The position numbers were made by a program, and so were the translations under genes. From NCBI GenBank assembly GCA_016792845.1, contig JAEUKH010000018.1, positions 10,984 through 74,983 on the forward strand: DNA of 64,000 nt, given 5' to 3'. Position 1 is the first letter of the stretch. Every line of letters begins with the position of its first letter. Source of the DNA: Myxococcales bacterium. Lineage in GTDB: Bacteria > Myxococcota_A > Polyangia > Polyangiales > Ga0077539. This document shows positions 3,481 through 55,079 of the stretch, in pieces. The notes beneath the pieces are model-generated. The model worked only from the letters and a program-made list of their open reading frames with translations, did not search any database and was not told the origin of the DNA.

Positions 3481-4383
3481 ATGGACAACTCGCTGCGATT
3501 TACGCTCCTCATGGGCACCTACAACCACGCGAAGTACCTCCCGACGGCGCTCGACCATGTGCTCTCGCAGACGCGGCCCCCCGAGCGGATCGTGTTCTTC
3601 GACGACGGCTCTCGCGACGACAGCTTCGCCCTCGCGCGGGCGCGCTTCGCGGGCGACCCGCGGGTGGTGTTCGTGCCCGACGCCGACCGCAACATGGGCC
3701 TGCTCACCCGCATGCGCCTCGCGCGCCCGCTCTTGCTGCCCGGCAGCTTCGTCGTCCAGCATGCAGGCGACGACATGCTCGACCGCGCGTGCTTCGCCCG
3801 TCACGCCGAGAACCTCAGCCGACGCGCCGCGCGATGGAGCGTCGCCGCCATCGACGCCGTCGACGAGGAGAGCGGAGAGTTCTTGTACGCGATCAAGCCC
3901 GACCCCGCGGTGCTCGAATCCGCGGCGCCGCTGCTCGAACGGCTACTCCGGGGTGCGCCCTTTCCGCCGGTGCACGGGTGGGCCTATCACACCGCCCTGC
4001 TCGACGAGGTGGGCGGCTACGACCCAGGCTTCGCGATGGAGGATCTGCCCCTGCTCTTCCGTTTCGCGGCGCGCGAGCGCCCCTCGCTCACCGACGCCAC
4101 CGTCTGCGCCGTGCGCGTTCGCCCGAACCAGTACGCCCGGTGGCGAGGCCAGCTCCCGCGAGACGCCGCGCGCCTCGCCCTTGAGAGCGTGCGGCAGCAC
4201 CCCAGGGCCGCGCTCGAATACGCCTCGCGGCAGTACATGGCCGCCGCCACCGGGTCTGCGCGGCACCGCGCCTGGGCCGATGCCCTCGCCGACCTCACCC
4301 GCGCCGTCGCCCTCTGGCCCGTGCCCACAGCGCCCCACTTCGTCGCCCCGCTGAAGAAGCTGAAGACTCGTTTGGTCGGTTGA
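3481..4383 (+). CDS. family 2 glycosyltransferase
   Basis: 300-aa ORF. N-terminus FTLLMGTYNHAKYLPTALDHVLSQT...VFFDDGSRDDS is the GT2 signature (DXD-type, Rossmann-like). Confidence 0.7.
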   Translation: MDNSLRFTLLMGTYNHAKYLPTALDHVLSQTRPPERIVFFDDGSRDDSFALARARFAGDPRVVFVPDADRNMGLLTRMRLARPLLLPGSFVVQHAGDDMLDRACFARHAENLSRRAARWSVAAIDAVDEESGEFLYAIKPDPAVLESAAPLLERLLRGAPFPPVHGWAYHTALLDEVGGYDPGFAMEDLPLLFRFAARERPSLTDATVCAVRVRPNQYARWRGQLPRDAARLALESVRQHPRAALEYASRQYMAAATGSARHRAWADALADLTRAVALWPVPTAPHFVAPLKKLKTRLVG

Positions 4384-4447: not shown

Positions 4448-6607
4448 GTGGAGATCATCAAAGACACACCCTTCGAGGTCGCCACGGTGACCTGGCAATT
4501 GTCACCGCCTGCGTGGTCGCTCACGGTGGTGGTCAAGGGCACCTTCAGCCTCGCCGACGATGGCAGCCTCAGCGTCGCAGAGACCCAGCGCCCCTGCGAG
4601 GGCGACATTCTGTGGGACGATGTCGAGCCCGGCTCGCCGCGCCGTGAGAGCGACCTGGCGGTGTACAAACCCCGAGGCGAGTGGTTCGTCGAAGGCCACT
4701 GTTACCCGCCCGGCGGCGAAGCCACCACGTCGGCGTGCAGCGTCACCCTCGGCCGTTCGGGCCGCGCCCTCGCCGTCTTCGGCGACCGCCACTGGGGCGC
4801 CGCAGGCGTCGCCTCAGCGCCCGCGCCCTTCACCGCGATGCCCCTCCGATGGGAGCGCGCCTACGGCGGCCCCGGGCACCCGTCGAACCCCGTGGGCCGC
4901 GGCGTCGAGGCCGTCGAGACCCGCGAGGGGCGGGTGCATCGCTTGCCCAACCTCGAAGCCCCCGAGGCGAGGGTCGAGAGCCCCCATCGCCCGGGTTTCG
5001 CAGCGTGTTTCGCCCCCGTCGGGCGCACCTGGCCGGTGCGGAGCGCCTTCGCGGGCACCTACGACGCGACCTGGCGCGCGACGCGCTTCCCGTGGTTCGC
5101 CGCCGACCTCGACACGGCGTACTTTTTGGGCAGCCAGCACCTCCAGTGGGCCGAGACGTATTGGCGCGGCGACGAGCCCTTCGAGCTGGTCAACCTCCAT
5201 CCGCAGCACCCCCGCCTGCGAGGCCAGCTCGCGGCGATGACCGCGCGGGTGCTCGCGACCCCCGCGGGCCTCGCACCCAATGAGACGAACGCCCGGGCCC
5301 TCAACGCCGTCCTCGACACGGTCACGTTTCTGCCCGACGAGATGGCCGTTACGTGTGTCTGGCGCGCGGTGCTCACGGTCACCGACGAGACCGCCTCGAA
5401 CCTCGGCTTTCTCTACGTCACCCACGACGACCTTGAGGCGCCGCGCCCCCTCGCGGCCCTCGTCGCAAGGCTCGCCGCGGAGCGCGACGCGCAGGCCGCC
5501 GAAGCGGGCGCCGACGCCGAGATGCCGCCCCCCGGCGCACCCCTCAGCGACGCCGAGCGGATGTTCTCGCCTGCCGTCGCGGGCCTCGCGGGCACCCTCG
5601 CCGCGCGCGGCATCAGCGCCTTCGACGCGACCCTCCGCACCCACGACGCCGCCCCCGCCCCATCGCCCCCGCAGGTCGATCACGCCGCGTTGCGGGGCCG
5701 CCTCATGGCGCGCCTCGCCAACGACGAGGCCGTCGACGATCTCGACCTGAGCGACGCCGACCTCCGCGGGCTCGACCTCGCCGGGCGGAGCCTCAAGGGC
5801 CTCCTCGCGCCCCGCGCCCAACTGAGCGGCGCGACCCTCGACCGTTGCGATCTCAGCGACGCGGTGCTCACCGACGCGAGCCTCGCCCACGCCGCCCTGC
5901 GCGGCGCGACGCTGACCCGGGCTGAGCTCTCGGGGTGCTCGGCCGAGGCCGCGAGCTTCGACCGCGCGGTGCTCCGCGAGGCGGTCTTCGAGGCCGCGAC
6001 CTTGAGCCGCGCGAGCTTCGCCAACGCCATCGTCGACGGCTGCGATTTCACCCGCGCGGCGCTCTCGGGCGCGGTGCTCCGAGAGGCCTCGGGCAAGGGC
6101 GTCGAATTCACCGCGGCGCGCCTCGACGGCGTTCAGGCCGAGCGCGCAGTGCTGCCCGACGCGACCTTCCGCCGCGCGAGCGTGGTGGGGGCCCGTTTCG
6201 ACGACGCGCGGCTCGACAACCTCCGGGCCCTCGACGGCGCGGTCTTCGACACCACCAGCTTCCGCGGGGCGAAGCTCGACGGCGCCAACTTCAGCGAGTC
6301 GCGGCTCGTCGGGTCACACTTCGCCTTCGCGAGCTTGAAGAAGGCCGAGTTCAGCGACGCCGCGCTCACCCGCGCGGGCTTCGAGGGCTGCGTGCTCAAG
6401 GGCGCGTGCTTCGACCGCGCTGACCTGCGAGAGGCCGCGATGCTGCGCTGCGACCTCCACGAAGCCCGCTTCGAAGCGAGCGACCTCCGCGGCGCCGACC
6501 TCCGCGGCTCGAACCTCTACGGCGCCGAGCTCTGGCGCGCGCAGACCGAAGGGCTACGCACCGAACTGGCCATCGTCACCCGCTCTGGCCTCGACCCCAA
6601 CCTCTGA
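4448..6607 (+). CDS. DUF2169-domain protein fused to C-terminal pentapeptide repeats (T6SS spike-associated family)
   Basis: The six-frame ORF starts at TTG 4403. I place the start at in-frame GTG 4448 (VEIIKDTPFEV..., the typical DUF2169 N-terminus). About 400 aa of DUF2169-like sequence is followed by about 300 aa of A(D/N)LxxA pentapeptide repeats (ADLSDADLRGLDLAGRSLKG...). Confidence 0.65.
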   Translation: MEIIKDTPFEVATVTWQLSPPAWSLTVVVKGTFSLADDGSLSVAETQRPCEGDILWDDVEPGSPRRESDLAVYKPRGEWFVEGHCYPPGGEATTSACSVTLGRSGRALAVFGDRHWGAAGVASAPAPFTAMPLRWERAYGGPGHPSNPVGRGVEAVETREGRVHRLPNLEAPEARVESPHRPGFAACFAPVGRTWPVRSAFAGTYDATWRATRFPWFAADLDTAYFLGSQHLQWAETYWRGDEPFELVNLHPQHPRLRGQLAAMTARVLATPAGLAPNETNARALNAVLDTVTFLPDEMAVTCVWRAVLTVTDETASNLGFLYVTHDDLEAPRPLAALVARLAAERDAQAAEAGADAEMPPPGAPLSDAERMFSPAVAGLAGTLAARGISAFDATLRTHDAAPAPSPPQVDHAALRGRLMARLANDEAVDDLDLSDADLRGLDLAGRSLKGLLAPRAQLSGATLDRCDLSDAVLTDASLAHAALRGATLTRAELSGCSAEAASFDRAVLREAVFEAATLSRASFANAIVDGCDFTRAALSGAVLREASGKGVEFTAARLDGVQAERAVLPDATFRRASVVGARFDDARLDNLRALDGAVFDTTSFRGAKLDGANFSESRLVGSHFAFASLKKAEFSDAALTRAGFEGCVLKGACFDRADLREAAMLRCDLHEARFEASDLRGADLRGSNLYGAELWRAQTEGLRTELAIVTRSGLDPNL

Positions 6608-29135: not shown

Positions 29136-29852
29136 TCAGAGCGGCGCGATCTTCTCCCTGATCGCGTCGAGAAAGTCCTTGAGGCCGTTCGCTTGACCTC
29201 GCGCACGCAAGCGTTCGAGCGGAGCCCTTTCGAGAACTTCCTCTCTCCGCGTCTTCGAGAGCCTCAGCTCATCGAGCGCGCGCTTCGCATCGTTCGGGTC
29301 GGTCACCTTGGCTGAGGTCAGCCGCTCACTCTGCTCACACGGGTCGAAGCCGAGGCGCTTGCGAAGCGCTGCGAAGTTCGCCGTCTCGGTCTCCCCCTCG
29401 GGGCTGTATCCCGCAAGCACCCAAGCCTCGTGCTCTGGCTGCGCGATGCCGAAGGCTAGGCGATCTTTTTCGTGACGCTTCCACGCCGAGATGCCCGCTG
29501 CGATGCCCTCGGCCCAAGCTGAGGCGTTGCGGTCACCGTCATGCACGAACACCACGCAGCAGTGCTCCTTGCGTCGTTGCCTCTGAATCGCACGCGCGAG
29601 CCGGAGCACCTGGCGCTGGACCGGACTCCCAGACTCCCCGTGCACAGGCGGAACTGTGAGCGGGGCCGCAAGCTTGAGGATCTCAGTCCACGAGACGTAC
29701 CCGGCGCTGCCGTCTGGGTGCCACCACGTCACAACGCTTTCGGTGATGCCACGAACCCAGTCGTGCTCTTCTTCGATCACCCGGGTCGTCAACGCCCTGA
29801 GGTCGGCGGCATCGGCCCCTCCTTCGCAGACCAGCACGAGGGTCCAACTCAC
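29136..29852 (-). CDS. small Toprim-like protein (DUF4276-like; conserved LVCEGG Glu and VHDGD DxD), partner of upstream ABC-type ATPase
   Basis: I place the start at GTG 29852-29850, which overlaps the TGA of the upstream ATPase as GTGA. The alternative ATG at 29933 would overlap the ATPase by 84 nt. Motifs: VSWTLVLVCEGGAD..., ...CVVFVHDGD..., EAWVLAGY. Confidence 0.5.
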   Translation of the reverse strand: MSWTLVLVCEGGADAADLRALTTRVIEEEHDWVRGITESVVTWWHPDGSAGYVSWTEILKLAAPLTVPPVHGESGSPVQRQVLRLARAIQRQRRKEHCCVVFVHDGDRNASAWAEGIAAGISAWKRHEKDRLAFGIAQPEHEAWVLAGYSPEGETETANFAALRKRLGFDPCEQSERLTSAKVTDPNDAKRALDELRLSKTRREEVLERAPLERLRARGQANGLKDFLDAIREKIAPL

Positions 29853-31018
29853 GGATCGCCCCCCCCTCGCTGGGCCACCCAGCCTTCGAGTTGCGCCATC
29901 CAGAGTTCGCCGGGCTTCACCATGTCGCGCCACAACTCAAACTCGGGATGCGCGTCGAGACCGGCGCACCGCACGGCCCCCTTGGGGTCGAGGGTGGTGA
30001 CCCGCACCTCGTCGAAGCCCACCGCATCGAGCAGGTACGGAGAGTGCGTGGTGGCCAGGATCTGCAAGCCCGGGCGCACCACGCGTTGAAACTCCTTGAG
30101 TTGGGCCACCAGATCGATCTGGGCCTTCGGGTGCAGGCCTCGGTCTAGCTCGTCGAGCATCAGCACGCGCACATGCTCGTGCGCCAGCACCGCGGTCGCC
30201 ACCGCGAGCACCAGGGTCGTGCCCTCGCTCGCCGCCGAAAGCGGAATGTTCGACCCGCTGTCAGTGTCGACCACCACCCGCTGGCCCCACACGCTCTCGT
30301 CGCGGCGCTGCGACATCGCGTGTCCGTTCACCACGATCTCGTCGGCACGCACCCGGCTCACCCGCGCCCGCTCGACCCGCACACCCCGCACCGACGGAAT
30401 CACCCGCCGCACCATCCCCACGATGCCCTCGCGCGTCTCCGGCCTGCGCGCCCAGAGGTCACCCAACACCGACCCCAGCCCCTCGCCGTTGGGCCCCAGG
30501 CGCGGCACCGCCTCGTCTGAGTAGCTGGGTCGCGCCAGGGTCGGAGCGTCAAACGCATGCAACACCCCCTCGCCGAGCCACGCGCGAAGCTCAGCCCACG
30601 CGGGTTCGCGCGACTTCGCGAGGCCGCGCGCTTCCACCTCGCCGATCGACTCTTCGATCTGGCCAACGACCTTCGCAGACGCCAAGACCGGGCCGTCACC
30701 CAGCACGCGCCGCTGCACCGAGCCGACCTCACCCGGGCCGACCCGAAGCGTCGCCAGCAATAACTTCTGCGCGACCGCCTCAAGGCTGATCGTCGTCGCG
30801 CCGACGGCGTCACGCGAGAGCACCGACACGTCGTCACTCCACGCCGCGTCAACGCCCTCCGAGAGCGACCCCGCGAGCGCCTGGAGCACCAGCCCCACGC
30901 CCGCCAGGAGGCTCGACTTGCCCGCCCCGTTGGGCCCCACGAACACCGTAAACGGCGCCAGATCGACCGACACCGACCGCAGCGCTCGAAAGTTCTCGAA
31001 GCTCACCCGCTGAATCAT
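29849..31018 (-). CDS. ABC-type (AAA_21/OLD-like) ATPase
   Basis: Start ATG 31018-31016 (MIQRVSFENFRALRSVSVDLAPFTVFVGPNGAGKSSLL: Walker A). C-terminal signature-like LSAASEGT, Walker B VRVLMLDELD, H-loop ILATTHSP. The 204-codon N-terminal extension of the six-frame ORF (to 31630) is antisense to a real + strand gene and is rejected. Confidence 0.65.
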   Translation of the reverse strand: MIQRVSFENFRALRSVSVDLAPFTVFVGPNGAGKSSLLAGVGLVLQALAGSLSEGVDAAWSDDVSVLSRDAVGATTISLEAVAQKLLLATLRVGPGEVGSVQRRVLGDGPVLASAKVVGQIEESIGEVEARGLAKSREPAWAELRAWLGEGVLHAFDAPTLARPSYSDEAVPRLGPNGEGLGSVLGDLWARRPETREGIVGMVRRVIPSVRGVRVERARVSRVRADEIVVNGHAMSQRRDESVWGQRVVVDTDSGSNIPLSAASEGTTLVLAVATAVLAHEHVRVLMLDELDRGLHPKAQIDLVAQLKEFQRVVRPGLQILATTHSPYLLDAVGFDEVRVTTLDPKGAVRCAGLDAHPEFELWRDMVKPGELWMAQLEGWVAQRGGGDP

Positions 31019-31045
31019 CGTCGCCCGCAGTCGTACCCCGGCCCC

Positions 31046-31798
31046 GTGCGGCGTGTCACCCGCGCGGACCCGCCCTGGAGTACCCTTCGCCAGGTGACGC
31101 CTCCCCGACGCCTCGCCGCCGCGCTCGCGCTCGCCACCCTGGCCCTGGGTCTGCTCTGGCTCCGTCGCCGCCCCAGCGACCCCGAGACCGCCGCGGGCGC
31201 CCCGCAGCCCCGCCGAGGCACCTACGAGGCTCAGGAGCGCCCGAACCTGGGTGAGACCGAGCGACGCCCCTCGGAGCCCCCGCGCGCCCCCGCACGCACC
31301 CTCCACGACCGGGCGCAGCGCGACGCCTTGCGGGCGGCCCTGGTGACCCTCTGGCAGCGCGAGGCGGCCGCAGCACGCGCCGAGCAAGCCCGCGATGCGG
31401 CCACCGACGACGACGCGGGGGTGCGCTACCCCGCCATGCCCACCCGCGACGGAGGCGTCGACCCTGAGTACCTCCGGAGCCGCATCCGAGAAGACTTTCT
31501 GCCCATGGCCGGAGCTTGCTACGACCAGCTCCTCGCGCGGCGCCCGGGGGTCGAGGGCCGGGTGGTGATCGACTTCACCCTCGTGGGCGATTCGCGGGTC
31601 GGCGGCGTCGTCGACGAGGCCTCGCTGCACTATGGCGACGCAGGGGTTGCCGACGCGGGGCTCATGGAGTCGGGCTTCGAGACCTGCCTCCGCGAGTCGA
31701 TGCTCGCCATGGCCTTCGCCCCTCCCCCCGGGAGCGGTCAGCTCAGGGTTCGCTACCCGCTGAACCTCCGCCCCGACGCTCCCGACGCGGGCCGCTGA
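31046..31798 (+). CDS. membrane-anchored protein with C-terminal TonB-C/AgmX-like domain
   Basis: N-terminal signal-anchor (RRLAAALALATLALGLLWL). Charged/coiled middle region. C-terminus GRVVIDFTLVGDSRVGGVVDEAS...FETCLRESMLAMAFAPPP...LRVRYPLNL fits the TonB C-terminal-like fold. A second protein at 40750-41865 carries a similar domain. The exact start is uncertain. Confidence 0.45.
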   Translation: MRRVTRADPPWSTLRQVTPPRRLAAALALATLALGLLWLRRRPSDPETAAGAPQPRRGTYEAQERPNLGETERRPSEPPRAPARTLHDRAQRDALRAALVTLWQREAAAARAEQARDAATDDDAGVRYPAMPTRDGGVDPEYLRSRIREDFLPMAGACYDQLLARRPGVEGRVVIDFTLVGDSRVGGVVDEASLHYGDAGVADAGLMESGFETCLRESMLAMAFAPPPGSGQLRVRYPLNLRPDAPDAGR

Positions 31799-31820
31799 GC
31801 CGCGACGCCGCCCGGCGCGA

Positions 31821-32040
31821 GCGTATCTCCAGATTCGTCAGGGCGTATCTCCAGATACGTCAGGGCGTATCTCCAGATACGTCAGGGCGTATCTCCAGAT
31901 GCCTCGGGACGTGTCTCCAGATGCCTCGGGCGTATCTCCAGATGCCTCGGGCGTATCTCCAGATGCCTCGGGACGTATCTCCAGATGCCTCGGGACGTAT
32001 CTCCAGATGCCTCGGGACGTGTCTCCAGATACGTCGCGGG
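31821..32040. repeat. array of ten tandem 21-22 bp repeats (consensus CGTATCTCCAGAT[A/G]C[G/C]TC[A/G]GG[A]), each containing inverted hexamers GTATCT-CC-AGATAC
   Basis: Read directly from the sequence. There are 3 A-type units (…AGATACGTCAGGG) and 6 B-type units (…AGATGCCTCGGG[A]), plus a degenerate terminal unit. The array is intergenic between convergent 3' ends (31798 and 32043). Confidence 0.9.
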
Positions 32041-32042
32041 GC

Positions 32043-32597
32043 TCAGCCCTTGGCGGGCTTCTTCTCGCGCTTGGCCTTGCGGCCGAAGCCGCCGAAGTAG
32101 GCGAGCGGCTCTTGGAGCGCGCGGCGCAGCTCGGGGTTCGATTTCGCGAGCACCGAGAGGTCGTTGTAGACCCGCAGCGTGGGTTTGCGGCTCTTGGCGC
32201 CGTAGAAGAGGGCCGAGTCGCTGAGCCGCGACACCATCTGAACGCTCACCGCGTCGACCTGGGCTGCGGCCTCGGCGAAGCGCTCGTGGAGCGTAAGCCA
32301 GTCGCGCAGGATCTCGGCTTCGAAGCGCTGGGGGTCGACCCCGCCGTCGCCGTGGCCTGCGACCAGGGCCGGGTACTTCTCGGCAGCGTCGAGCACGCCC
32401 CGAAGCACCTCGCTCTCGCCCACCCGCAGCTTGCCGAGCGACACCTTGCGCGCGTCGGGGCTCAGCACCGTGACGTGCGGCGCGATCAACGCCGCGGCTT
32501 CTTCGACCAGGGCCACCGCCCGGGTCAGATCGGCCAGCATCGCAGCCCGCCTGGCCGACCCGTCGACCTTGTTCGCCTTCTTCGAGACCTTTGCCAT
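32043..32597 (-). CDS. hypothetical protein (Lys-rich termini), last gene of a Clp-like ATPase operon
   Basis: 184-aa ORF with GC3-rich codon usage consistent with coding. No family is recognisable from the sequence. Confidence 0.45.
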   Translation of the reverse strand: MAKVSKKANKVDGSARRAAMLADLTRAVALVEEAAALIAPHVTVLSPDARKVSLGKLRVGESEVLRGVLDAAEKYPALVAGHGDGGVDPQRFEAEILRDWLTLHERFAEAAAQVDAVSVQMVSRLSDSALFYGAKSRKPTLRVYNDLSVLAKSNPELRRALQEPLAYFGGFGRKAKREKKPAKG

Positions 32598-32645
32598 GTG
32601 AGACGTACCTCCGTTCTTGCGAAGGTAGCGCAGGGCGAGGTGTCG

Positions 32646-33410
32646 TTACCAGAGCCCGTCTCCGGCGATGCGAAGCCCCACCGAGCCCCAAGGCGCTTGG
32701 GCGGGTTGCCCCCAGAGCCCCGCGCCCACGGTGGTATCGAGCTGCACGGCGTGACTGAGGAGGTATCGAACGCCGCCTTGCATCGAGCCGCCAGACGCCC
32801 CGGCGTAGGGGTCACCCGAGAAGAGTTCTGCGACCCCGTAGAGGTCGCGCCAGAGGTGGAGCTGCGTGCCGACGCCCCAAGTGAGGGCCAGCGGGTGCTC
32901 GACCGCGGCGGTGGTGGCGTAGAAGCCCACGTTGGCGTGCACCAGGAAGTGGTCGTGAGGGCGCAGCGACTCGGTGAGCGCGAGATACCCGAAGCCGTCC
33001 CAACCGGTGGCGCCGAAGCCGCCCACGTGGAGCGGCGGCACGCCCCCGAGCACCATCGCCACCCCGGGGAAGCCCAGCCGCTCGGGCATGCGTCGCAGCA
33101 GCAGCTTGGCCTGAAAGAGCGGCCCCGTCGCCGAGAAGGCGCGGCCCCCCGCGAGCGTCGTCCCGTACACCCCGCCCAGGGTGAGTTCGACGCGCTCGTG
33201 CGGCCCGAAGGCAGGGAGCACCCAGTGCTGGAGCGCGTTGCGATCGAGCCTGAGCCAGGTCTCAAGCTGCGCCCCGCGCGCGCCGACCACCCGCGCATCG
33301 TCTGTAACGAAGGGCCTGATCGCCCACGCCGGCGAAGGCGCCAGCAGCAGCGACGCGAGGCAAACCCAACGACGCGCGTTCGGCGCCGCACCCGCAACAC
33401 GAGACAGCAT
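32646..33410 (-). CDS. outer-membrane beta-barrel protein (MetA-pathway/transporter-like family)
   Basis: Signal peptide MLSRVAGAAPNARRWVCLASLLLAPSPAWA. N-terminal RPFVTDDARVV motif. Alternating hydrophobic beta-strand pattern ending with an aromatic residue (…GLRIAGDGLW). Confidence 0.55.
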   Translation of the reverse strand: MLSRVAGAAPNARRWVCLASLLLAPSPAWAIRPFVTDDARVVGARGAQLETWLRLDRNALQHWVLPAFGPHERVELTLGGVYGTTLAGGRAFSATGPLFQAKLLLRRMPERLGFPGVAMVLGGVPPLHVGGFGATGWDGFGYLALTESLRPHDHFLVHANVGFYATTAAVEHPLALTWGVGTQLHLWRDLYGVAELFSGDPYAGASGGSMQGGVRYLLSHAVQLDTTVGAGLWGQPAQAPWGSVGLRIAGDGLW

Positions 33411-33412
33411 CC

Positions 33413-35719
33413 TCAGGCCCTCGGCCCCTCGGCTGCGCCGAGATCGATCACGCCGTCACCCCCGACGGTCACCCCGCGGTCACGCAGGGCGGGCTCCCGC
33501 GCGAGGAGCGCCGCCACCGGAGACACCACCCGGTCTTCGAGCACCCGCTTGAGCGGACGGGCCCCGCGGGTCGGGTGAAAGCCCTCTTCGGCGAGCTGGA
33601 GCCGCAGCGCGGGGGTCACCCTCAGGCTGAGGTTTCGCCGCACGAGGCCCGAGCGTTGGGCGGCCTTCGAGAGCTCGAGGTCGACGATCCGCAGCACGTC
33701 GTCGGGGCTGAGGTTGCGGAAGCTCACCACATGGTCGATGCGGTTGAAGAACTCAGGGCGAAAGTGCTGGCGCACGGCGCGGTCGAGCCCCGCGGCGGTG
33801 GCGTCGGCGTCGAAGCCCACGGGCCGCGTCTCGGTGACGCCGAGGTTCGAGGTCATCACCACCAGGGTCATGCGAAAGTCGACGACGCTGCCGAAGCTGT
33901 CGGTCATGCGCCCCTCGCCGAGCACCCCGAGGAGGAGGTCGAACACCTCAGGGTGGGCCTTCTCGACCTCGTCGAGGAGCACCAACGAGAGCGGCTGCTC
34001 GCGCACCCTTTGGGCGAGGCTGGTGACCCCGCTCCCCACCTCAAGGAGCCGCTGCGCCGACCCGGCGAACATGTACTCGCTCATGTCGAGCCGCACCATG
34101 CGCGCCTCGTTGCCGAACATGTACCGCGCGAGGGTGCGCGCGAGCTCGGTCTTGCCGACCCCCGTGGGGCCGACAAAGAGCAGCGTGCCGATGGGGCGCT
34201 CGGGGTCATCGAGGCCCGCTTTGAAGCGCGCGAGCACCCGGGCCGCCACCGCGCAGGCGTGGTCTTGACCGATCACGGCCCCCGAGAGCCGCGCGGCGAG
34301 GGCCGTCGCGCCCACCCGCGTCTCGTCGGCGATGAGCTCGACGGGCAGCCCGGTGTTGCGCGCGAACAGCTCTGACACGTCGCGGGGGTAGAGAGTCTTG
34401 GGCGCACGCACGCTCTGCCCGGGCGCGGGCGCGCCTTCTCCCGCGGCGAGCCAGTCGACAAAGCGCATCGCCTTCCCGGGGAAGGCCACGTCGCGCTGGA
34501 AGGTCGCGAGGTGATGAATGAGCCGCTTCATCGCCCCGGCGTGCAAGCTGAGATGCGGCGCCTTGCGCTGCTGGTAGCTCGCGAGGAGCACGGGCAGCTG
34601 GTACGCCGGCGGCGGCGTGAGCCTGAGCACCACCAAGGGCTCGACCAGCGAGGCGAAGCGACGGCGGCAGTGCTCGTACTCGGCCTCGGTGCACTCGGCG
34701 ATCACCGAGACCTCGCCGTCGCGGGCCGCGGGCAAGAGGATCTCTCCGAGCGAGGCGCCGTCGCTCTGCGGCTGGAGGAGCTTCACCAGCGCGTCGAGGT
34801 AGAGGTAATCGCCCTCGTGGCTGAGCTCGCTTAGCAGGTCGAAGCAGCGCTCTTGCCACATCCCGACGTAGGTCATGCCCGCGATGAGCCGCGTGGCGCT
34901 GGTGGCCCAAAGCCGCGGGGTGTGAGCCTCGCGGCCCTCGCGACGGCGGGCGAGGAGGCTCCGCGCGAGGCGCCGCACGAAGGTCGTCTTGCCGACGCCG
35001 CTCGGGCCCACCAAGAGCACCGACGGCGGCGGGCTGCGCGAGAGGAGCCCCAGCGCGTTGGTGAAGGCGTCGCTCTCGCCCACGACCCCCGGGAGCTTGT
35101 TGCGCGCCGCGCGCTCGACCCACTCGTCGGCGACCTGTGACAGCACCGGGAAGCGCCGCGCGGCGTCGAGGTCGTGGGCCTCGTCTTCGGTGGTGCCGGT
35201 GCCCCGCATCGACCAGCTCCTGACGTACTCATCGCCGACGTAGCGGAAGTCGTAGAGGGTCGAGGCCTGCTCGCCGAGGAGCGCCGACGACACCGCCGAT
35301 TGCAGCACCTCGGCCGCGATGTCGAGGCTCTCGATGACGAACCACCACCCGAAGCGCGGCAGCATCACGCGGTAGCCGCCCTTGCGCAGCGCGCACCACG
35401 CGTAGCTCATGCGAAGCGGGATCTCTTTGGCCCCGATCACCATGCGCTTGTTCGACACGCTCTGCGGAAACACCCGCAGCGACACCTGGCGGGTCTGGAA
35501 GTCTTCCTCCCACAGGTACCGCTCGACGTCGTCGTCGCCCACCGCGAGGGCTTGTTGCAGCGCCACTTCGAGCTGCCGCAGCACGTCGTCTTCGCTGGTG
35601 CCCACCGCGCTCGGCGGCGGGCGATCGAAGAACGCATCGAACTGCCGAATGAGCGTGCCGGTCAACAAACCCCTGGCGTGCGGCACGAAGTAAACGCGAA
35701 ACGAACGCTTGTCACCCAT
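33413..35719 (-). CDS. ClpA/ClpB-like double-ring AAA+ ATPase with a non-canonical 200-aa N-terminal domain
   Basis: 768 aa. D1 Walker A is LLVGPSGVGKTT. D2 has FVGPTGVGKTELARTLA, Walker B LVLLDEVEKAHPEVFDLLLGVL, and sensor-2 GARPLKRVLE. The N-terminal 200 aa have no Clp_N features. The next gene starts 3 nt after its stop. Confidence 0.7.
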   Translation of the reverse strand: MGDKRSFRVYFVPHARGLLTGTLIRQFDAFFDRPPPSAVGTSEDDVLRQLEVALQQALAVGDDDVERYLWEEDFQTRQVSLRVFPQSVSNKRMVIGAKEIPLRMSYAWCALRKGGYRVMLPRFGWWFVIESLDIAAEVLQSAVSSALLGEQASTLYDFRYVGDEYVRSWSMRGTGTTEDEAHDLDAARRFPVLSQVADEWVERAARNKLPGVVGESDAFTNALGLLSRSPPPSVLLVGPSGVGKTTFVRRLARSLLARRREGREAHTPRLWATSATRLIAGMTYVGMWQERCFDLLSELSHEGDYLYLDALVKLLQPQSDGASLGEILLPAARDGEVSVIAECTEAEYEHCRRRFASLVEPLVVLRLTPPPAYQLPVLLASYQQRKAPHLSLHAGAMKRLIHHLATFQRDVAFPGKAMRFVDWLAAGEGAPAPGQSVRAPKTLYPRDVSELFARNTGLPVELIADETRVGATALAARLSGAVIGQDHACAVAARVLARFKAGLDDPERPIGTLLFVGPTGVGKTELARTLARYMFGNEARMVRLDMSEYMFAGSAQRLLEVGSGVTSLAQRVREQPLSLVLLDEVEKAHPEVFDLLLGVLGEGRMTDSFGSVVDFRMTLVVMTSNLGVTETRPVGFDADATAAGLDRAVRQHFRPEFFNRIDHVVSFRNLSPDDVLRIVDLELSKAAQRSGLVRRNLSLRVTPALRLQLAEEGFHPTRGARPLKRVLEDRVVSPVAALLAREPALRDRGVTVGGDGVIDLGAAEGPRA

Positions 35720-35896
35720 CGCGAAGGCCCGCGAGTGTACGCGAAGCCCTCACCCGCGTCGCGTCGCGATCGCCGTAGGCCTCTCGCGACCCCGCGCATC
35801 GGCCCCTCGGCGACGCCGCGGCGGAGGGCCCAAATGCCACGCGGCCCATGAGAGACCCACGAGCCGCGGTGCGAGGGCGCGCCGAGAGGCTTCAGC

Positions 35897-37702
35897 TCAG
35901 GGCGACGAGCCCACGTTCTGGACGCACTCGATGAGGGCGCTGGCGCCGTTGTCGATGCTGGCCCCTTCGGTGAACGAGATGCGCTGGAGGCAGCTCGGCG
36001 CCGACGGGTCGACGGTGGTGTCGTAGTAGAAGCCCGCGCCCGCGGTGGGGCGGCCGCCGAGGGGGGCCGGCACCTGCTCGACGAGGCACTGCTCGTTGCC
36101 GTTGGCGTCGCGACCCGCAGGGCGACGGCCGCGGGCGGGGGTGCAGCGGTCGGCCGCGCGGAGGTTCGACGGCAAGGTCTCACGCACCACGCAGTTGACG
36201 CGCACCGGGGTGGTCGAGCCCATCGAGACGCAGCCCGCCGGAGTGCCCATGCCCGTACAGATCGGCGGCGTGGTCTGAAGCGGACGCGGCAGACACCGAC
36301 CCGAGAGCTGGTTCTGGATGCGCTCGACGATCTGCTGGAGGGCCGTCGAGTAGTCGCTGCGGCAGATCGAGCTGACGGTGCCGTTCTGGTAGCCCACGGC
36401 GAAGCGGCGGGCGACCTCGACGATGCGGCGCGAGGGCCACGCGAAGTACTGCGAGGTGGTGTCGCAGGCCGGGCGCGAGGGGTCGTACGAGGTGCCCTCG
36501 CGGCGACAGGCCGGCACCACGCGCATCGCGCAGGCGGGATCCATGTTGCGCTGGCGCATCGAGACGGGGCCCTCGGTGCTCATGCCCGTGAAGCCCTCAG
36601 AGCCGTTCGGGTTGGCGCCGAGCAGGGTGCCCCAGTCGATCTGGGTGGTGCCGCCCGAGGTGGTGCTCGGGAGGTTGATCGGCACGCCCAAGATGCCTGC
36701 GAAGATCACGAGGTTCGGCCGCCCAGGCTTGAGCGAGAGGAAGCCGCGCGTCGGGCGCATCGGGTCGATGTACCGGTTCAAGTTCCACGTGGGGTCTTGC
36801 CGCGTGCCGGGCTCGTACATGTAGAACCTGAGGTTCAGGTCGTTCGAGGCCCAGTCGCCCGAGCTGCTGTCGAAGACGCCGAGGGCGTCGCCGCGAGGCG
36901 CCCGGCAGTCGCCGTCGGGGTCGCCCTGCTCTTGGTAACGGCAGTCGCGCACCGAGCCGTCTTCTTCGTCAGACACGAGCACGATGGCGAGCACCGAGTC
37001 GTTGCGCACGAAGCCCGCGTTCGGGTCGGTGTTGCCGGCCTGCGCGCGGGGGTTGCGCACCACGAGGGCGCGGTACGCCGACTCGAGCTGCTGCTCAAGG
37101 CCGCAGCCGCCCGTCGACAAGAAGGCGTTGCACACGAAGTCTTCACGAAACGCCGCCGCGTCAGTCATCTGCGCGTCGAAGGTCAGGAAGTTCGGGTACT
37201 GGTTCAGGTTCATCGTGCAGCGGGCGGGGCGGATGCCCGCGGGCGCCGTCGTCCACGGTTGGTGCATGCGGATCGCGAGGCCGTTGCGCACGGGGTTCAA
37301 CAACCCGTCGTCGCCCGAATCGCTGTTCACACACGACGGCACCGTCGAGCCCGGAGTGCCGAGGTCTGAGCTGATCACACCGACGTGCATCGAGCGCACG
37401 GGCGTGTAGCGCGGCCGCATGGTGGCAGGGTCGACCGGCGGCGACACCAGCTGCGAGATCAGCACGTCGAACTGACGCGCGAGCTGCGCCTGGTTGTCAC
37501 GCATCGAGTTCGAGTTGTCGATTTCGAAGAGAATGTCGACCGAATCGACCGCGTTGTTGACCACCGGAAGGCGGACACCCGACTGCAGCTTCGGCTCAGG
37601 CGCCGACACCGGACGATCAAGACAGCCCGCCGTGAGCGCGCCCAACACGCCCACCGCCATCACGCTGCCAACCCAGAAGCGGAAGCCAACCCGCTGCGAC
37701 AT
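35897..37702 (-). CDS. secreted lipoprotein with von Willebrand factor A-like (MIDAS) domain
   Basis: Signal plus lipobox VLGALTAGC. DxSxS MIDAS motif in DILFEIDNSNSMRDNQ. Cys-rich C-terminal half. Confidence 0.6.
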   Translation of the reverse strand: MSQRVGFRFWVGSVMAVGVLGALTAGCLDRPVSAPEPKLQSGVRLPVVNNAVDSVDILFEIDNSNSMRDNQAQLARQFDVLISQLVSPPVDPATMRPRYTPVRSMHVGVISSDLGTPGSTVPSCVNSDSGDDGLLNPVRNGLAIRMHQPWTTAPAGIRPARCTMNLNQYPNFLTFDAQMTDAAAFREDFVCNAFLSTGGCGLEQQLESAYRALVVRNPRAQAGNTDPNAGFVRNDSVLAIVLVSDEEDGSVRDCRYQEQGDPDGDCRAPRGDALGVFDSSSGDWASNDLNLRFYMYEPGTRQDPTWNLNRYIDPMRPTRGFLSLKPGRPNLVIFAGILGVPINLPSTTSGGTTQIDWGTLLGANPNGSEGFTGMSTEGPVSMRQRNMDPACAMRVVPACRREGTSYDPSRPACDTTSQYFAWPSRRIVEVARRFAVGYQNGTVSSICRSDYSTALQQIVERIQNQLSGRCLPRPLQTTPPICTGMGTPAGCVSMGSTTPVRVNCVVRETLPSNLRAADRCTPARGRRPAGRDANGNEQCLVEQVPAPLGGRPTAGAGFYYDTTVDPSAPSCLQRISFTEGASIDNGASALIECVQNVGSSP

Positions 37703-40749: not shown

Positions 40750-41865
40750 CTAGCGGGCGCTGCCGAAGCGCATGGGATAATCGACCTCGACCTCGCCCCC
40801 CTCAGGCTGCGGATACCGCCAGGTCGCGACTTGATTCTGGAGACAGGTCACGAGCTCAGGCACGCGCACGGTGTCGCTCATGACCCGGGTGCGACGCACG
40901 CGGCCGTCTTCGCCGATGCGCACCCGCATCACCACCACGCCGTTGACCTCGCGGTTGCGCGAAGCGCTCGAATAACAGCTCGAAATCTGCGGGCTGTAGT
41001 GGCGGTACACGTACGTGAAAGCCTGCGGATCCATGCGGCCCGTGGCGTCGGTCTCGTCGCCCATCGCGTAGCCGCCGCGGGAGGTGCGGGGCCCCCGCTC
41101 GGTGACGCCATTCTCGTCAGGCCCCGAGGGCGCGGGCGCGGCCCCGTTGGCCGCAGTGTTCGTGTTGGCCGCGGCGGCGGGTGCGGCCTGGCCGGGGTCT
41201 GGCGACGCGGGCGTCGCAGGGTTGTTGTTGGCCGCGGTCGGCGTCGCAGGGTTGCCGTTGGCCGCGGTGGGCGTCGCAGGGTTGCCGTTGGCCGCGGTGG
41301 GGCGCTGGGCGGCGGGCGCGGCGGCGCGTGGGGCTTGCGCGAGCGCGGCGCCATTGGGAGCCCGCGGGGGGTTGCCCACAGGGCGCCCGGAGGGTTCGAC
41401 TGGCGCAGGGCCGCCGCGCTCGACGGGGCCCGCGTCGACGGGCTCGACGGGGGCGGGCTGACCGATCAGGCCCACCGGGGTCACTGGCTCGCCCTCGGGC
41501 GTGTTGCCGCGAAAGGCGCGCACCGCCACGAGGGCGCCGAGGGCCGCGCACCCGAGGCCCACGCCGAGAAACATCGCGAGCAAGGTGCGCTTCGAAGGCC
41601 CGGTCATCGGGAGCTCGATGGCATCACCCGTCGAGAGGCCGAGGTCGAGCCTCGCAGAGCTCTGCCCCGAGAGCGAGGCGCGACGCGGAGAGGTCGCCCC
41701 CGCGGCGGTCACCCGGTCGGCAGGCGGCGCGCCCGAAGCCGCGCCCGACGCCCCGTGCCCTGTGGGCGGAGACGCCACCGGGGCCATGCTCTCGATGCGC
41801 ACGCCGCACTGGTTGCAGAAGCGCGCGCTGTCAACATTTTCGACCCCGCAAGCTGGGCAAAACAC
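40750..41865 (-). CDS. zinc-ribbon membrane protein with Pro/Ala-rich repeats and C-terminal TonB-C/AgmX-like domain
   Basis: N-terminus MFCPACGVENVDSARFCNQCG (zinc ribbon). TM segment LLAMFLGVGLGCAALGALVAV. Repeats TAANGNPATP x3. C-terminus ...VNGVVVMRVRIGEDGRVRRTRVMSDTV...LVTCLQNQVATWRYP... Confidence 0.55.
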   Translation of the reverse strand: MFCPACGVENVDSARFCNQCGVRIESMAPVASPPTGHGASGAASGAPPADRVTAAGATSPRRASLSGQSSARLDLGLSTGDAIELPMTGPSKRTLLAMFLGVGLGCAALGALVAVRAFRGNTPEGEPVTPVGLIGQPAPVEPVDAGPVERGGPAPVEPSGRPVGNPPRAPNGAALAQAPRAAAPAAQRPTAANGNPATPTAANGNPATPTAANNNPATPASPDPGQAAPAAAANTNTAANGAAPAPSGPDENGVTERGPRTSRGGYAMGDETDATGRMDPQAFTYVYRHYSPQISSCYSSASRNREVNGVVVMRVRIGEDGRVRRTRVMSDTVRVPELVTCLQNQVATWRYPQPEGGEVEVDYPMRFGSAR

Positions 41866-52412: not shown

Positions 52413-55079
52413 TCAGAAGCCCGGCGTCGCGCCGGTGGGGACGAGCTGCGTCGAGAGCGCGCCGTGCGCGTCGACACCCTCGGCGCGAAGCACGAAGAGC
52501 GCTTCGACGTAGAGCCGCCCCTCGTCGAGGCGACCCTCGCCGATGGCGCTCACCCGCACGTTGCCGTCGCCGAGCCGTGAGAGCTCGATGACGAGCGGCT
52601 GAGAGGCCCCGAGGCGCAGCGCCGCGTCGCCCTTCTCGAAGCCCGTTGGGTGCGCCGCGAGCGCCGCCAGGGCGTGAAGCCCCGCGTCGGCCGAGGGCCC
52701 TTCGAAGCCGAGCAGCATGCCCTCGCTGCCCGTAGTGAGACGGCCCACAAAGGCCCGCGCGACCTCGGCGTTGCTGTCGCCGAAGGCCACACGCCCCGCG
52801 CGCATCGAGAGCGCCAGCTGAACCGCAGGCCCCCACCCCGAAGCCCCCTGCGCGCGGAACGACAAGGCCGACCGACGCGCCCGCGAGAGCTCGTCGTGCG
52901 CCTCGACCAGCGCGACCCGATCACCCGCCGGGAGCTCGCCGAGCAACGCAGCCAGGAGCGTCGTACGCCCCGCGCCCCGCGCGCCCACCACGACGATGTT
53001 GCGCCGCGAGACCAGCGCGTTGTGCAGCAGAGCCACCGCGGGCGCCGAGAGCACCCCACGGGTGGCCAGCTCTTGCAGCGAGGCCGGCCGCGCCGCCGCG
53101 CGCTCAAGGGTCGCCACCACCCCGTGCGGCACCAACGGAGCGTAGGCCGCCACCACCCGCACGCCGCCGTGCACCACGGTGTCGATGTGGCTCGACGCGC
53201 CGCGGTTGAAGCCCTGGGCCCCGAGCCAGCGGTCAAGACACTCGGCCGCCGCTTCGCTGCTCGAGAACCACTGCCCTGTCGCGGCAATGGCGCCCCCGCG
53301 GGCCGCGTGCACAGCCCCCGCGCCGTCGATCACCACCGCGGTGGTCTCGCCGTCTTCGAGGAGCGCCTCAAGGGCGCCGCTGCCCGCGATCTCTGCCAGG
53401 GCGTCGCGGGTCAGCCGCTCGACGGTGACCCCCGCGGGCATCGGGCCTACGGCGCGGGCCGTCTGCTCGACCAGGGGCCGAAGCCGCGCGCGCGCAACCT
53501 CGTCGCCCGCAGCGCCGTCACCGCCGCGCTGCCTGGCCTGCCGAACAACCTGCCCCAAGACCTCTTGATACTCGTTGCCGACCTGCGGTTCGAGCGCCCG
53601 CGCCACGGGCCGCGAGGCGATCTGAGCCGTGGCCCCGAGGCCCAACGAAGGCGCAGCGAGAGGCGTCGGCGCAGGGCCCGAAGGCGGCAGCCCCAAAGCC
53701 GGCGCTGACAGCGACTCTGCCATCATCGGCTCGGGCTGCGACTCGCGGTGAATCTCAACCGGCACCGGCGCCATCACGGGCTCGATGGGCGCCGCCTGCG
53801 GTGCGCCGAAACCAGGCGGAGGGCCCATCATCGGCGGGGCCCCGAGACCAGGCGGAGGGCCCATCATCGGAGCACCCAGACCGGGCGGAGGGCCCATCAT
53901 CGGAGCACCCAGACCGGGCGGAGGGCCCGGCGGTGCGCTCAACCCTGGGCCCATGCTCGGCGCCGCCAACGGCGGGGTCGCGAGATTGGGAGGAGGGCCA
54001 CCAAGCGACGGCGGAGGGCCGCCAAGCGACGGCGGTGGGCCACCAAGCGACGGCGGTGGGCCACCAAGCGACGGCGGTGGGCCGCCAAAGGAGGGTGCGG
54101 GCCCACCAAACGACGGCGCAGGCCCCCCCATCGGAGGCGGAGGGCCGCCCAGCGACGGCGGAGGGCCGCCAAGCGACGGCGCGCCGGGCTGGCTTGAACG
54201 GAGCGGCGGAGGCCCACCCACAGGAGCCCCTCCGGGCGGTGTGGCCATGGGGCCAGGAGGCCCGCCAAGCGGCGCGGCCGAGAGCCCACCCGCAGCAGGG
54301 CCCATCGAGGGTCGATTGCCAGGACCCCCAGAGGCAGACCCCACGCGCGGCGCAGGCCCGTTCGACAAGCCCGGCGGCGGGCCCATCGGCGGAGGGCCAC
54401 CCATCGGCGCGCCACCCATCGGCGGAGGGCCGCCCATTGGCGCACCACCCATCGGCGGAGGGCCGCCCATCGGCGCACCACGCATCGGCGGAGGGCCACC
54501 CATCGGCGCGCCACCCATCGGCGCGCCACCCATCGGCGGAGGGCCGCCCATCGGCGCGCCACCCATCGGCGGAGGGCCGCCCATCGGGCGCGGACCACCC
54601 GGCGGCGGACCCATCATCCCGGGCGGTGCGGTCATCGCGCGGGGACCACCCGGCGGGCCCGCAAAGCTCGGCGCCGGAGCCGGTGCTTCTTCTTCGTCGC
54701 CCCCGCCCCCGCCGTCGTCTTCGGGCGGCATCGCGTCGGCCGAGCCGTCGTCGACAAACTGGGCGTTCGGGTCGTCGACCATGGGCTGATCGCCCATCTC
54801 GACCATCACCACGAAATCGCCGATGTAGATCTTGTCGCCGGGGCGAACCACCGAGGGCGTCGTGATACGCCGACCGTTGAGGTAGGTGCCGTTGGTGCTC
54901 TTGAGGTCAACGACGAAGAAACGCCCGTCTTGACGCACCACCCGAGAGTGCCGCTTCGAAACATTGCCCTTCGGCAGCACAATGTCATTGCCCGGGACCC
55001 GACCGACCGTCACCTCGTCTCGGTCGAACTCCATCCGCTTCGGGGTACCGCCCTTTTCAGTGACGATCAGTGTCAGCAT
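52413..55079 (-). CDS. FHA-domain protein with long Pro/Gly-rich repeat region and C-terminal CpaF/VirB11-like (type II/IV secretion-type) ATPase domain
   Basis: N-terminal FHA domain (VTVGRVPGNDIVLPKGNVSKRHSRVV...TNGTYLNG). About 350 aa of GGPPPM / GGPPPSL tandem repeats. C-terminal Walker A VVGARGAGRTTLL and VALVEAHDEL. Immediately upstream of the pilM operon on the same strand. Confidence 0.7.
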   Translation of the reverse strand: MLTLIVTEKGGTPKRMEFDRDEVTVGRVPGNDIVLPKGNVSKRHSRVVRQDGRFFVVDLKSTNGTYLNGRRITTPSVVRPGDKIYIGDFVVMVEMGDQPMVDDPNAQFVDDGSADAMPPEDDGGGGGDEEEAPAPAPSFAGPPGGPRAMTAPPGMMGPPPGGPRPMGGPPPMGGAPMGGPPPMGGAPMGGAPMGGPPPMRGAPMGGPPPMGGAPMGGPPPMGGAPMGGPPPMGPPPGLSNGPAPRVGSASGGPGNRPSMGPAAGGLSAAPLGGPPGPMATPPGGAPVGGPPPLRSSQPGAPSLGGPPPSLGGPPPPMGGPAPSFGGPAPSFGGPPPSLGGPPPSLGGPPPSLGGPPPSLGGPPPNLATPPLAAPSMGPGLSAPPGPPPGLGAPMMGPPPGLGAPMMGPPPGLGAPPMMGPPPGFGAPQAAPIEPVMAPVPVEIHRESQPEPMMAESLSAPALGLPPSGPAPTPLAAPSLGLGATAQIASRPVARALEPQVGNEYQEVLGQVVRQARQRGGDGAAGDEVARARLRPLVEQTARAVGPMPAGVTVERLTRDALAEIAGSGALEALLEDGETTAVVIDGAGAVHAARGGAIAATGQWFSSSEAAAECLDRWLGAQGFNRGASSHIDTVVHGGVRVVAAYAPLVPHGVVATLERAAARPASLQELATRGVLSAPAVALLHNALVSRRNIVVVGARGAGRTTLLAALLGELPAGDRVALVEAHDELSRARRSALSFRAQGASGWGPAVQLALSMRAGRVAFGDSNAEVARAFVGRLTTGSEGMLLGFEGPSADAGLHALAALAAHPTGFEKGDAALRLGASQPLVIELSRLGDGNVRVSAIGEGRLDEGRLYVEALFVLRAEGVDAHGALSTQLVPTGATPGF

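Follow-up and report, generated by a model that had tools for sequence, protein, structure and literature searches.

What does a row of ten short palindromic repeats do in the gap between two genes that converge on it? This question is raised by positions 31821-32040 of the 64-kb window analysed here, i.e. the whole 64,000-nucleotide stretch of contig JAEUKH010000018.1 from a Myxococcales bacterium, where an array without strand assignment, built of 10 head-to-tail units of 21-22 bp each, lies 2-3 bp from the stop codon of a gene encoding a helical protein of 184 amino acids (aa; 32043..32597, minus strand). An initial annotation of this DNA had described the array and listed several possible functions for it. 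The key point beyond that description is the link of the array to the adjacent 184-aa gene, as arrays of the same period adjoin genes of the same family in other lineages. We propose, with a probability of roughly 0.45 and hence just short of even odds, that the array is a cis-acting set of putative protein-binding sites coupled to the adjacent protein family, with the 184-aa protein as the leading candidate binder.

Tandem Repeats Finder returns a single array call for the region (31821-32030; period 22, 9.6 copies, 93% matches, score 301), and a degenerate 10th unit, read by eye, carries the array to about 32040, which bears out the ten tandem 21-22-bp repeats reported initially. In order, the units measure 22, 22, 22, 22, 21, 21, 22, 22 and 22 bp, followed by the degenerate last unit. 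Units 1-3 belong to a sub-family of the form CGTATCTCCAGAT(A/T)CGTCAGGG, ending in ...AGAT(A/T)CGTCAGGG, and units 4-9 to a sub-family of the form CGT(A/G)TCTCCAGATGCCTCGGG(A), ending in ...AGATGCCTCGGG(A); the two sub-families sit in blocks of three and then six units, in agreement with the earlier description. The half-sites flip their orientation about every 11 bp, CGTATCT-CC-AGATACG being followed by a 6-bp spacer. The 6-bp inverted repeat with a 2-bp spacer that had been ascribed to every unit is, however, perfect in units 2 and 3 only, while seven units show one mismatch and unit 5 shows two. Since the units are contiguous, with no spacers between them, the array is not one of clustered regularly interspaced short palindromic repeats (CRISPR).

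No other tandem repeat of the window is as strong as this array, the coding Pro/Gly repeats around 54 kb excepted. The 14-mer GTATCTCCAGATAC, searched with up to two mismatches, matches 12 times in the 64 kb against 0.03 matches expected from shuffles, and all matches fall within the array, the motif having no copy elsewhere in the window. GC content is at least 0.62 throughout 31700-32200. The array occupies the gap between the stop codons of two genes, 31046-31798 on the plus strand and 32043-32597 on the minus strand, both of which are backed as real genes by third-codon-position GC; the convergent 3' ends noted initially are thereby confirmed. The same measure detects no coding frame inside the array, and a coding-repeat reading is ruled out by this lack of a frame signal together with a 22-bp period that is not a multiple of three. 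An 11-nt inverted repeat, GCTGAGCCGCG / CGGGGCTCAGC (31794-31804 and 32037-32047), exactly brackets the array and spans both convergent stops; it could be a chance occurrence in DNA of 70% GC.

The 184-aa protein belongs to a family of 124 cluster representatives, nearly all 170-220 aa long, that were retrieved at E<1e-3 when 1.84 billion such representatives were scanned exhaustively with HMMER; its membership follows from full-length HMMER similarity and from the motifs R..S.GKLR.GE and LAD.D.G.DP..FET. To place the array in a wider context, we compared 11 lineages with readable flanking DNA around family genes, about 114 kb in all. In 8 of them a tandem array with a period of 21-22 bp adjoins the family gene, seven times downstream and once upstream. 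Besides the window, where the 10 units begin 2-3 bp after the stop codon of the family gene, arrays follow directly at the stop in L017 (about 4 x 21 bp), after 5 bp in L013 (protein P0002, 51% identical to the window protein; 4.4 x 22 bp with GTACC-N4-GGTAC cores), after 9 bp in L022 (P0007; 6.2 x 21 bp, core CTCCACA-AA-TGTGGAG), after 49 bp in L021 (P0003, 47% identity; 6.1 x 22 bp) and after 153 bp in L024 (P0130; 8.8 x 21 bp), an open reading frame called across the last of these being spurious. In L014 and L016, whose proteins are of the P0126 type (32% identity to the window protein), arrays with the core CTGCCTCGCGAGGCAG start 72 bp after the stop and comprise at least 6 x 21 bp before an assembly gap in L014 and 8 x 21 bp in L016. 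The upstream case is L018/L019 (P0030), with about 4.5 units in inverted orientation about 200 bp ahead of the gene.

Across the same 114 kb, only two other arrays with a period of 19-24 bp and at least three copies are found, namely a coding repeat in the window (53992-54181) and an uninspected, 3-copy, CG/CCG-rich low-complexity row within a called gene of L023 (733-796). Because such arrays are this rare, their presence beside the family gene in 8 of 11 lineages cannot credibly be put down to chance; we estimate the probability of such a coincidence at about 1e-10, a figure of our own reckoning rather than the output of a tool. At every locus the repeat sites are confined to the arrays, and no extra copies occur upstream of the family genes. 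A separate repeat lies just upstream of the family gene in L024 (3802-3948), where an 8-bp microsatellite, CTCTCCCT x11, is preceded by its complement, GGAGAGAA x4.5.

The possibility that the array is an assembly artefact, which the initial annotation had raised, was addressed with eight Logan contigs from six SRA runs (SRR29844875/6, SRR12425352/53/64 and SRR10555725) of a strain about 99.6% identical to that of the window. The array edges that they carry are identical to the window (67 nt on the left, 42 nt on the right), and all eight short-read contigs terminate inside the array, such that the edges can be checked while the internal copy number is not readable from them. As contigs from six runs share these edges, the array is real and its edges are no artefact of assembly. 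Breaks at such arrays recur: apart from the Logan contigs of the window array (L001-L008), the L014 array contains a gap of N (4031-4130), L020 stops 23 bp past the stop codon of its family gene, and many family members lie on contigs of 1-2 kb. In practical terms, short-read assemblies of these loci are systematically interrupted by the 21-22-bp arrays.

Between the L019 unit CGTCTCCCCAGAGACGTCATGG and the window unit CGTATCTCCAGATACGTCAGGG, 18 of 22 positions are the same, and an A:T to C:G change in one arm has its mirror image in the other; likewise, the first L013 unit CCCTGACGTACCCGTGGGTACG agrees with the window unit in gene orientation at 16 of 22 positions, and its T:A to C:G changes have mirrored counterparts in the opposite arm. 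A palindrome in L015, GAGATACATCC-CG-GGATGTATCTC, has the half-site GTATCTC in common with the window. Shuffled units reach a similarity of at most 0.68 (95th percentile 0.55). Three arrays are recognisably homologous to that of the window, and in the alignable arrays dyad symmetry has been kept by compensatory changes. Tested against shuffles, dyad symmetry is significant or nearly so in five lineages, with p values of 0.025 for the window, 0.035 for L013, <0.0005 for L016, 0.054 for L019 and 0.0005 for L022. No more than 0-2 bp separate the two symmetric arms in the window, L013, L015, L016, L019, L021 and L022. The close relatives L014 and L016 have retained the same repeat: their proteins are 95% identical over the translated part of L016 (88% by tblastn), and their repeat units are 86% similar.

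Palindromic repeats could equally be expected in an element that acts as RNA, e.g. in a 3' untranslated region (UTR) or small RNA whose hairpins stabilise or terminate the mRNA, or in a repeat RNA that partners the protein in the manner of type III toxin-antitoxin systems. In line with this, a plus-strand transcript of the window array can form a single long hairpin (-123 kcal/mol, z -5.5), at least one strand of most of the eight arrays outperforms its shuffles in folding, and in seven cases the array falls in what is probably the 3' UTR of the family gene. The better-folding strand is, however, not a consistent one: in the window, L017 and L021 the antisense strand folds better, in L024 the sense strand does, and in L013, L016 and L022 neither strand stands out, with sense-strand z values of +1.3 for the window and -0.3 for L021, no better than shuffles. 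Such inconsistency is the pattern expected from DNA palindromes. Moreover, the symmetry extends to positions near the centre which would be free in a hairpin loop, as a loop imposes no constraint there. The absence of a consistent strand preference and the arms meeting within 0-2 bp together point to recognition of the array as double-stranded DNA. Rfam returns no match at E<=1 for 30500-33500 on either strand, and promoter and intrinsic-terminator scans predict nothing. The L019 array, being upstream of its gene and inverted, also fits an RNA element poorly, as do the 21-22-nt units, which are far below the length of ToxI-type repeats (about 36 nt), and the all-helical protein, which is not ToxN-like. 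We therefore consider the structured-RNA option of the initial annotation improbable.

A second possibility is that the array does nothing at all, being a minisatellite, i.e. a variable number tandem repeat (VNTR), that arose by slippage or unequal crossover from a palindromic seed such as a former terminator or operator and was tolerated in the intergenic gap. The block structure of three plus six units, the degenerate edge units and the internal identity of 93% indeed indicate recent expansion and homogenisation. The arrays of L014 and L016, whose proteins are 88% identical by tblastn, differ in unit order and number. Below about 50% protein identity, repeat sequences are mostly unrecognisable between lineages. 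Rapid turnover of the arrays fits the block structure of the window array, and three lineages manage without an array altogether. Independent expansions, on the other hand, would not yield the same 21-22-bp period beside one gene family in 8 of 11 lineages, nor would they account for arrays that are still homologous, with symmetry kept by mirrored changes, at only about 30-50% protein identity. As a plain VNTR leaves the recurrence beside homologous genes unexplained, we give this option little credence.

The adjacent protein belongs to a rare family without annotation. Neither Pfam, NCBIfam, PADLOC, PHROGs nor PDB sequences contain a match, and for the AlphaFold2 model, which consists entirely of helices (predicted local distance difference test score, pLDDT, 94), no fold match was found, including no ParB or ribbon-helix-helix fold. 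The residues R50, E61, D84, G86, E93 and D127 are invariant in the family, and both tails of the proteins are basic and rich in Lys and Ala. The most conserved loop (residues 82-93), D-x-D-G-G-x-D-P-x-x-F-E, looks by eye loosely EF-hand-like, with acidic residues at positions 1, 3, 7 and 12. Based on one member annotated to a Polyangiaceae metagenome-assembled genome (MAG) and on a weak AgmX/PglI tail match of the 250-aa protein encoded next to the array, the family appears to stem from Myxococcota. No member was detected on 72,556 plasmids (PLSDB; tblastn of two family proteins), on 50,697 phages or on viral contigs. A search with a 13-sequence sub-alignment (motif LADKDGGxD) yielded five metagenome loci and no viral matches, while a profile that included the K/A-rich tails returned just six proteins, low-complexity words having filled the candidate list. 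In the literature, we found no description of a module of this gene and array.

How might gene and array work together? In the mechanism that we favour, the array would be the cis-acting half of a two-part module and the adjacent 184-aa gene the other half. Each 21-22-bp unit, corresponding to two turns of B-DNA, carries two inverted half-sites about 11 bp apart, so that all sites would face one side of the helix, where symmetric dimers or oligomers, each occupying one unit, could bind cooperatively. As binder, the simplest assumption is the family protein, whose helical core could oligomerise and whose Lys-rich tails could touch DNA. Binding would probably create a nucleoprotein block where the gene ends; this block may act as an operator, a roadblock, an insulator or a loading site. 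Sites for a dimeric protein, phased at two helical turns, had been among the options of the initial annotation, and of these they are the best supported, namely by the period, the gene adjacency and the dyad symmetry across lineages.

Several observations weigh against this proposal. In its predicted structure the family protein lacks a DNA-binding fold; its conserved core, with a mean net charge of -4, is mildly acidic, only the tails being basic, and the invariant residues are mostly acidic (E61, D84, D88, E93, D127). Operators are not usually found downstream of a gene. The units of L017, L021 and L024 show little or no dyad symmetry, and three lineages are without a clear array: L015 has a single 24-bp perfect palindrome, L023 has scattered GC-rich palindromes upstream only, and L025/L026 has no array. 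Finally, repeat similarity and protein identity are uncorrelated overall (Spearman -0.13); the L013 and L021 proteins are 65% identical and their repeats are unrelated.

The genomic surroundings of gene and array vary widely. In L022 (3900-4792) both are placed antisense between pheT and pheS, which normally form a tight operon; this looks like an insertion, although it shows neither a target-site duplication nor terminal inverted repeats. In L013 the family gene stands beside ThsB-TIR and TIR-CHAT-STAND genes, and pairs of an AAA_15/AAA_21 ATPase and a protein of ~240 aa adjoin the family gene at three loci, namely in the window, on the P0073 contig and in L021, where they occur on both sides (1-1772 and 4866-6279). 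Such pairs are thereby commoner beside the family gene than expected by chance. Further contexts are a polysaccharide cluster, peptidase genes and a position next to mutS. No recombinase, transposase or integrase was found beside the loci read. Since gene and array recur together in unrelated neighbourhoods, they seem to move or persist as a unit with some affinity for defence-type genes, which the data suggest rather than prove.

Taken further, the locus may represent an undescribed, self-contained module of the Myxococcota, in which a protein of novel fold assembles on its own 21-22-bp array; this module would move between chromosomal sites, the pheST operon among them, and prefer defence-type neighbours such as AAA_15/21 ATPase pairs and TIR proteins. 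As such it would represent a regulator or insulator of a new kind, or a new kind of selfish element, without counterpart among par, rep, toxin-antitoxin or REP (repetitive extragenic palindromic) systems. We regard this wider interpretation as possible, though doubtful.

The same contexts can be read differently. A different, unlinked host protein may bind the array, or the array may mark a hotspot of recombination or integration or the boundary of a small mobile cassette, with the family protein as cargo or accessory. The joint occurrence of gene and array in unrelated places (pheT-pheS, TIR genes, ATPase pairs, polysaccharide and peptidase genes) would agree with this, as would a family protein with an acidic core and without a DNA-binding fold. 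The 2-bp centre of the palindromes is reminiscent of serine-recombinase crossover sites, a likeness that adds to this alternative. A cassette is, however, difficult to reconcile with the lack of a recombinase, transposase or integrase beside any locus, with the missing target-site duplication and terminal inverted repeats in L022, and with the absence of family members from the plasmids, phages and viral contigs searched. A single shared host factor, in turn, is unlikely given that the repeat sequences vary from lineage to lineage. Overall, we judge this explanation to be unlikely, and continue to favour binding of the array by the adjacent family protein.

Turning to the neighbouring genes of the window, the left border of the array is formed by the convergent gene of the 250-aa protein (31046..31798, plus strand). 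Its match to the AgmX/PglI C-terminal (myxo_SS_tail) domain is weak and below cutoff. This neighbour is not conserved at other family loci and, when compared, showed no homology to the gene that precedes the L019 array; it probably stands outside the gene-array module. Further to the left, the minus strand carries a pair of genes (29136..31018) which the initial annotation had called ATPase/Toprim-like. The ATPase part stands, as the 389-aa product of 29849-31018 is an AAA_15/AAA_21 ATPase, an ABC/SMC-type protein resembling components of defence systems; the Toprim part is unsupported, as its 238-aa partner (29136-29852) has no Pfam match and shows weak HEC-01B-type PADLOC matches. As a pair, the two resemble the defence candidates HEC-01, AriA and mad3 (best PADLOC matches HEC-01A/B, AriA and mad3), and they are a possible, though unproven, functional neighbour of the family gene.

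On the other side, the family gene is preceded on the same strand by genes (32646..37702, minus) for a UCP029691-family protein (254 aa), a ClpB-like AAA+ protein (768 aa) and a 601-aa protein without assigned function. The Clp-like neighbour named initially is hence confirmed; it is a double-AAA+ protein with an AAA_16-type N-terminal region and PADLOC matches to PDC-M37B and DolB. Among the loci read, this context is seen in the window lineage only, and the operon may be a candidate defence or stress module. Two further repeats of the window concern other regions. Repeats of 21, 33 and 81 bp at 53811-54619 are coding; in the 888-aa product of 52413-55079 (minus strand) they give rise to a linker rich in Pro and Gly (GGPPPSL, GGPPPMGGAPM). 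By eye, the N-terminus of this protein looks FHA-like and its C-terminus secretion-ATPase-like. A 30-bp repeat, GGGCGTCGCAGGGTTGCCGTTGGCCGCGGT, occurs in 3.1 copies with 93% identity at 41209-41301, where the third-codon-position GC filter calls no gene.

If the family protein does bind the array, it would represent a new DNA-binding fold, and about ten natural protein-site pairs of differing specificity would already be in hand; such pairs would serve studies on the co-evolution of recognition and could supply synthetic biology of high-GC bacteria with orthogonal parts. A family without annotation in any library searched would likewise gain a first function, and a gene that recurs beside candidate defence genes of myxobacteria could be accounted for.

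Among known systems, type III toxin-antitoxin loci (ToxIN, CptIN, TenpIN) also tie a small protein gene to a short tandem array, often in defence-rich surroundings. There, the array lies upstream of the toxin gene, which encodes a ToxN-like endoribonuclease, with a terminator in between, its units of about 36-45 nt act as RNA and the protein has an unrelated fold, whereas here the array is downstream in seven of eight cases. REP elements and bacterial interspersed mosaic elements (BIMEs) share with the array imperfect palindromes of alternating orientation and an intergenic position, often between convergent genes. In contrast to the tens to hundreds of REP copies per genome, however, the motif is unique within the 64 kb of the window, and none of the neighbours contains the domain of the associated RAYT transposase (HUH Y1), the family protein being all-helical and without HUH/RAYT features. 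A scan of 185,579 species representatives for two adjacent cores gave only four matches, a chance-level number, three of which are coding DLEK-type repeats and one an unrelated word array in an Acidobacteriota MAG without a family gene nearby. The ubiquitous motif resembling a REP element or a miniature inverted-repeat transposable element (MITE), against which the initial annotation had cautioned, is thus not what is found in the window or among the species representatives. In L011 (760-1200; Acidobacteriota MAG CAWHUF010000011.1), about 13 units of palindromic words of the AGATCTNGGGATCT type with a 20-bp period show a ~190-bp higher-order duplication; the array lies downstream of a gene called DinB-like by eye from its C-terminal residues, no member of the 184-aa family is present within 8 kb, and it could be a comparable array coupled to another partner.

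Closer likenesses are found on plasmids, and the array could accordingly serve a classical plasmid-type function as the iteron replication origin or partition centromere of an integrated or cryptic replicon. With a period of 21-22 bp and 10 copies, the window array has the helix-phased 17-22-bp direct repeats by which iterons are recognised, and the 4-10 copies seen across loci are those of iterons, too. The theta-plasmid iterons of P1, F, RK2, pSC101 and R6K are likewise phased direct repeats of about 22 bp in arrays of 4-10, with inverted half-sites as well. They differ in that iteron units are normally without an internal palindrome, unlike those of the window, and in that here no Rep initiator gene (no Rep domain in the neighbours), DnaA boxes, AT-rich region or plasmid is found. 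The replication-site option of the initial annotation is not supported for these reasons, i.e. a missing Rep gene, a GC content of at least 0.62 across the array instead of an AT-rich unwinding region, and no family member on a plasmid.

Partition loci come nearer in their layout. In sopC and its relatives the repeats adjoin the gene of the binder, each unit contains an inverted repeat, the copy number is 4-12 and the repeat sequence diverges fast. Thus, sopC/sopB of plasmid F, parC of R1, the pSK41 centromere and tubC have in common with the window tandem direct repeats beside the gene of a binder, here a candidate one, and an inverted repeat per unit; the position of the array just downstream of the putative binder gene matches sopB-sopC in particular. 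The units of sopC, however, measure 43 bp compared to 21-22 bp here, and in contrast to partition systems of types Ib, II and III, the window and the other loci read have no partner NTPase gene (no ParA, ParM or TubZ), no ParB helix-turn-helix or ribbon-helix-helix fold, and a chromosomal location, e.g. within pheST or next to mutS. The parS-like option is improbable on these grounds. Neither 72,556 plasmids nor phages contain similar DNA, and the family itself is missing from the same plasmids, from the 50,697 phages and from viral contigs. Taking both sides together, we consider a plasmid-type function very improbable.

The nearest case within the myxobacteria is plasmid pMF1 of Myxococcus fulvus, where a ParB without database homologues binds imperfect palindromes, AGATGTCT, upstream and downstream of the par operon (PMC3235114). 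Both systems thus feature a myxobacterial protein without database homologues and palindromic repeats near its operon, which speaks for a plasmid-type function as far as it goes; in pMF1, however, ParA is present, the system is plasmid-borne and the repeats are short and dispersed instead of forming a regular 21-22-bp tandem array (PMC3235114), and the likeness is one of analogy only. In conclusion, the array is best read as neither a plasmid iteron origin, a classical par locus, a REP element nor a plain VNTR, but as an array whose likeness to centromere and iteron arrays lies in its architecture.
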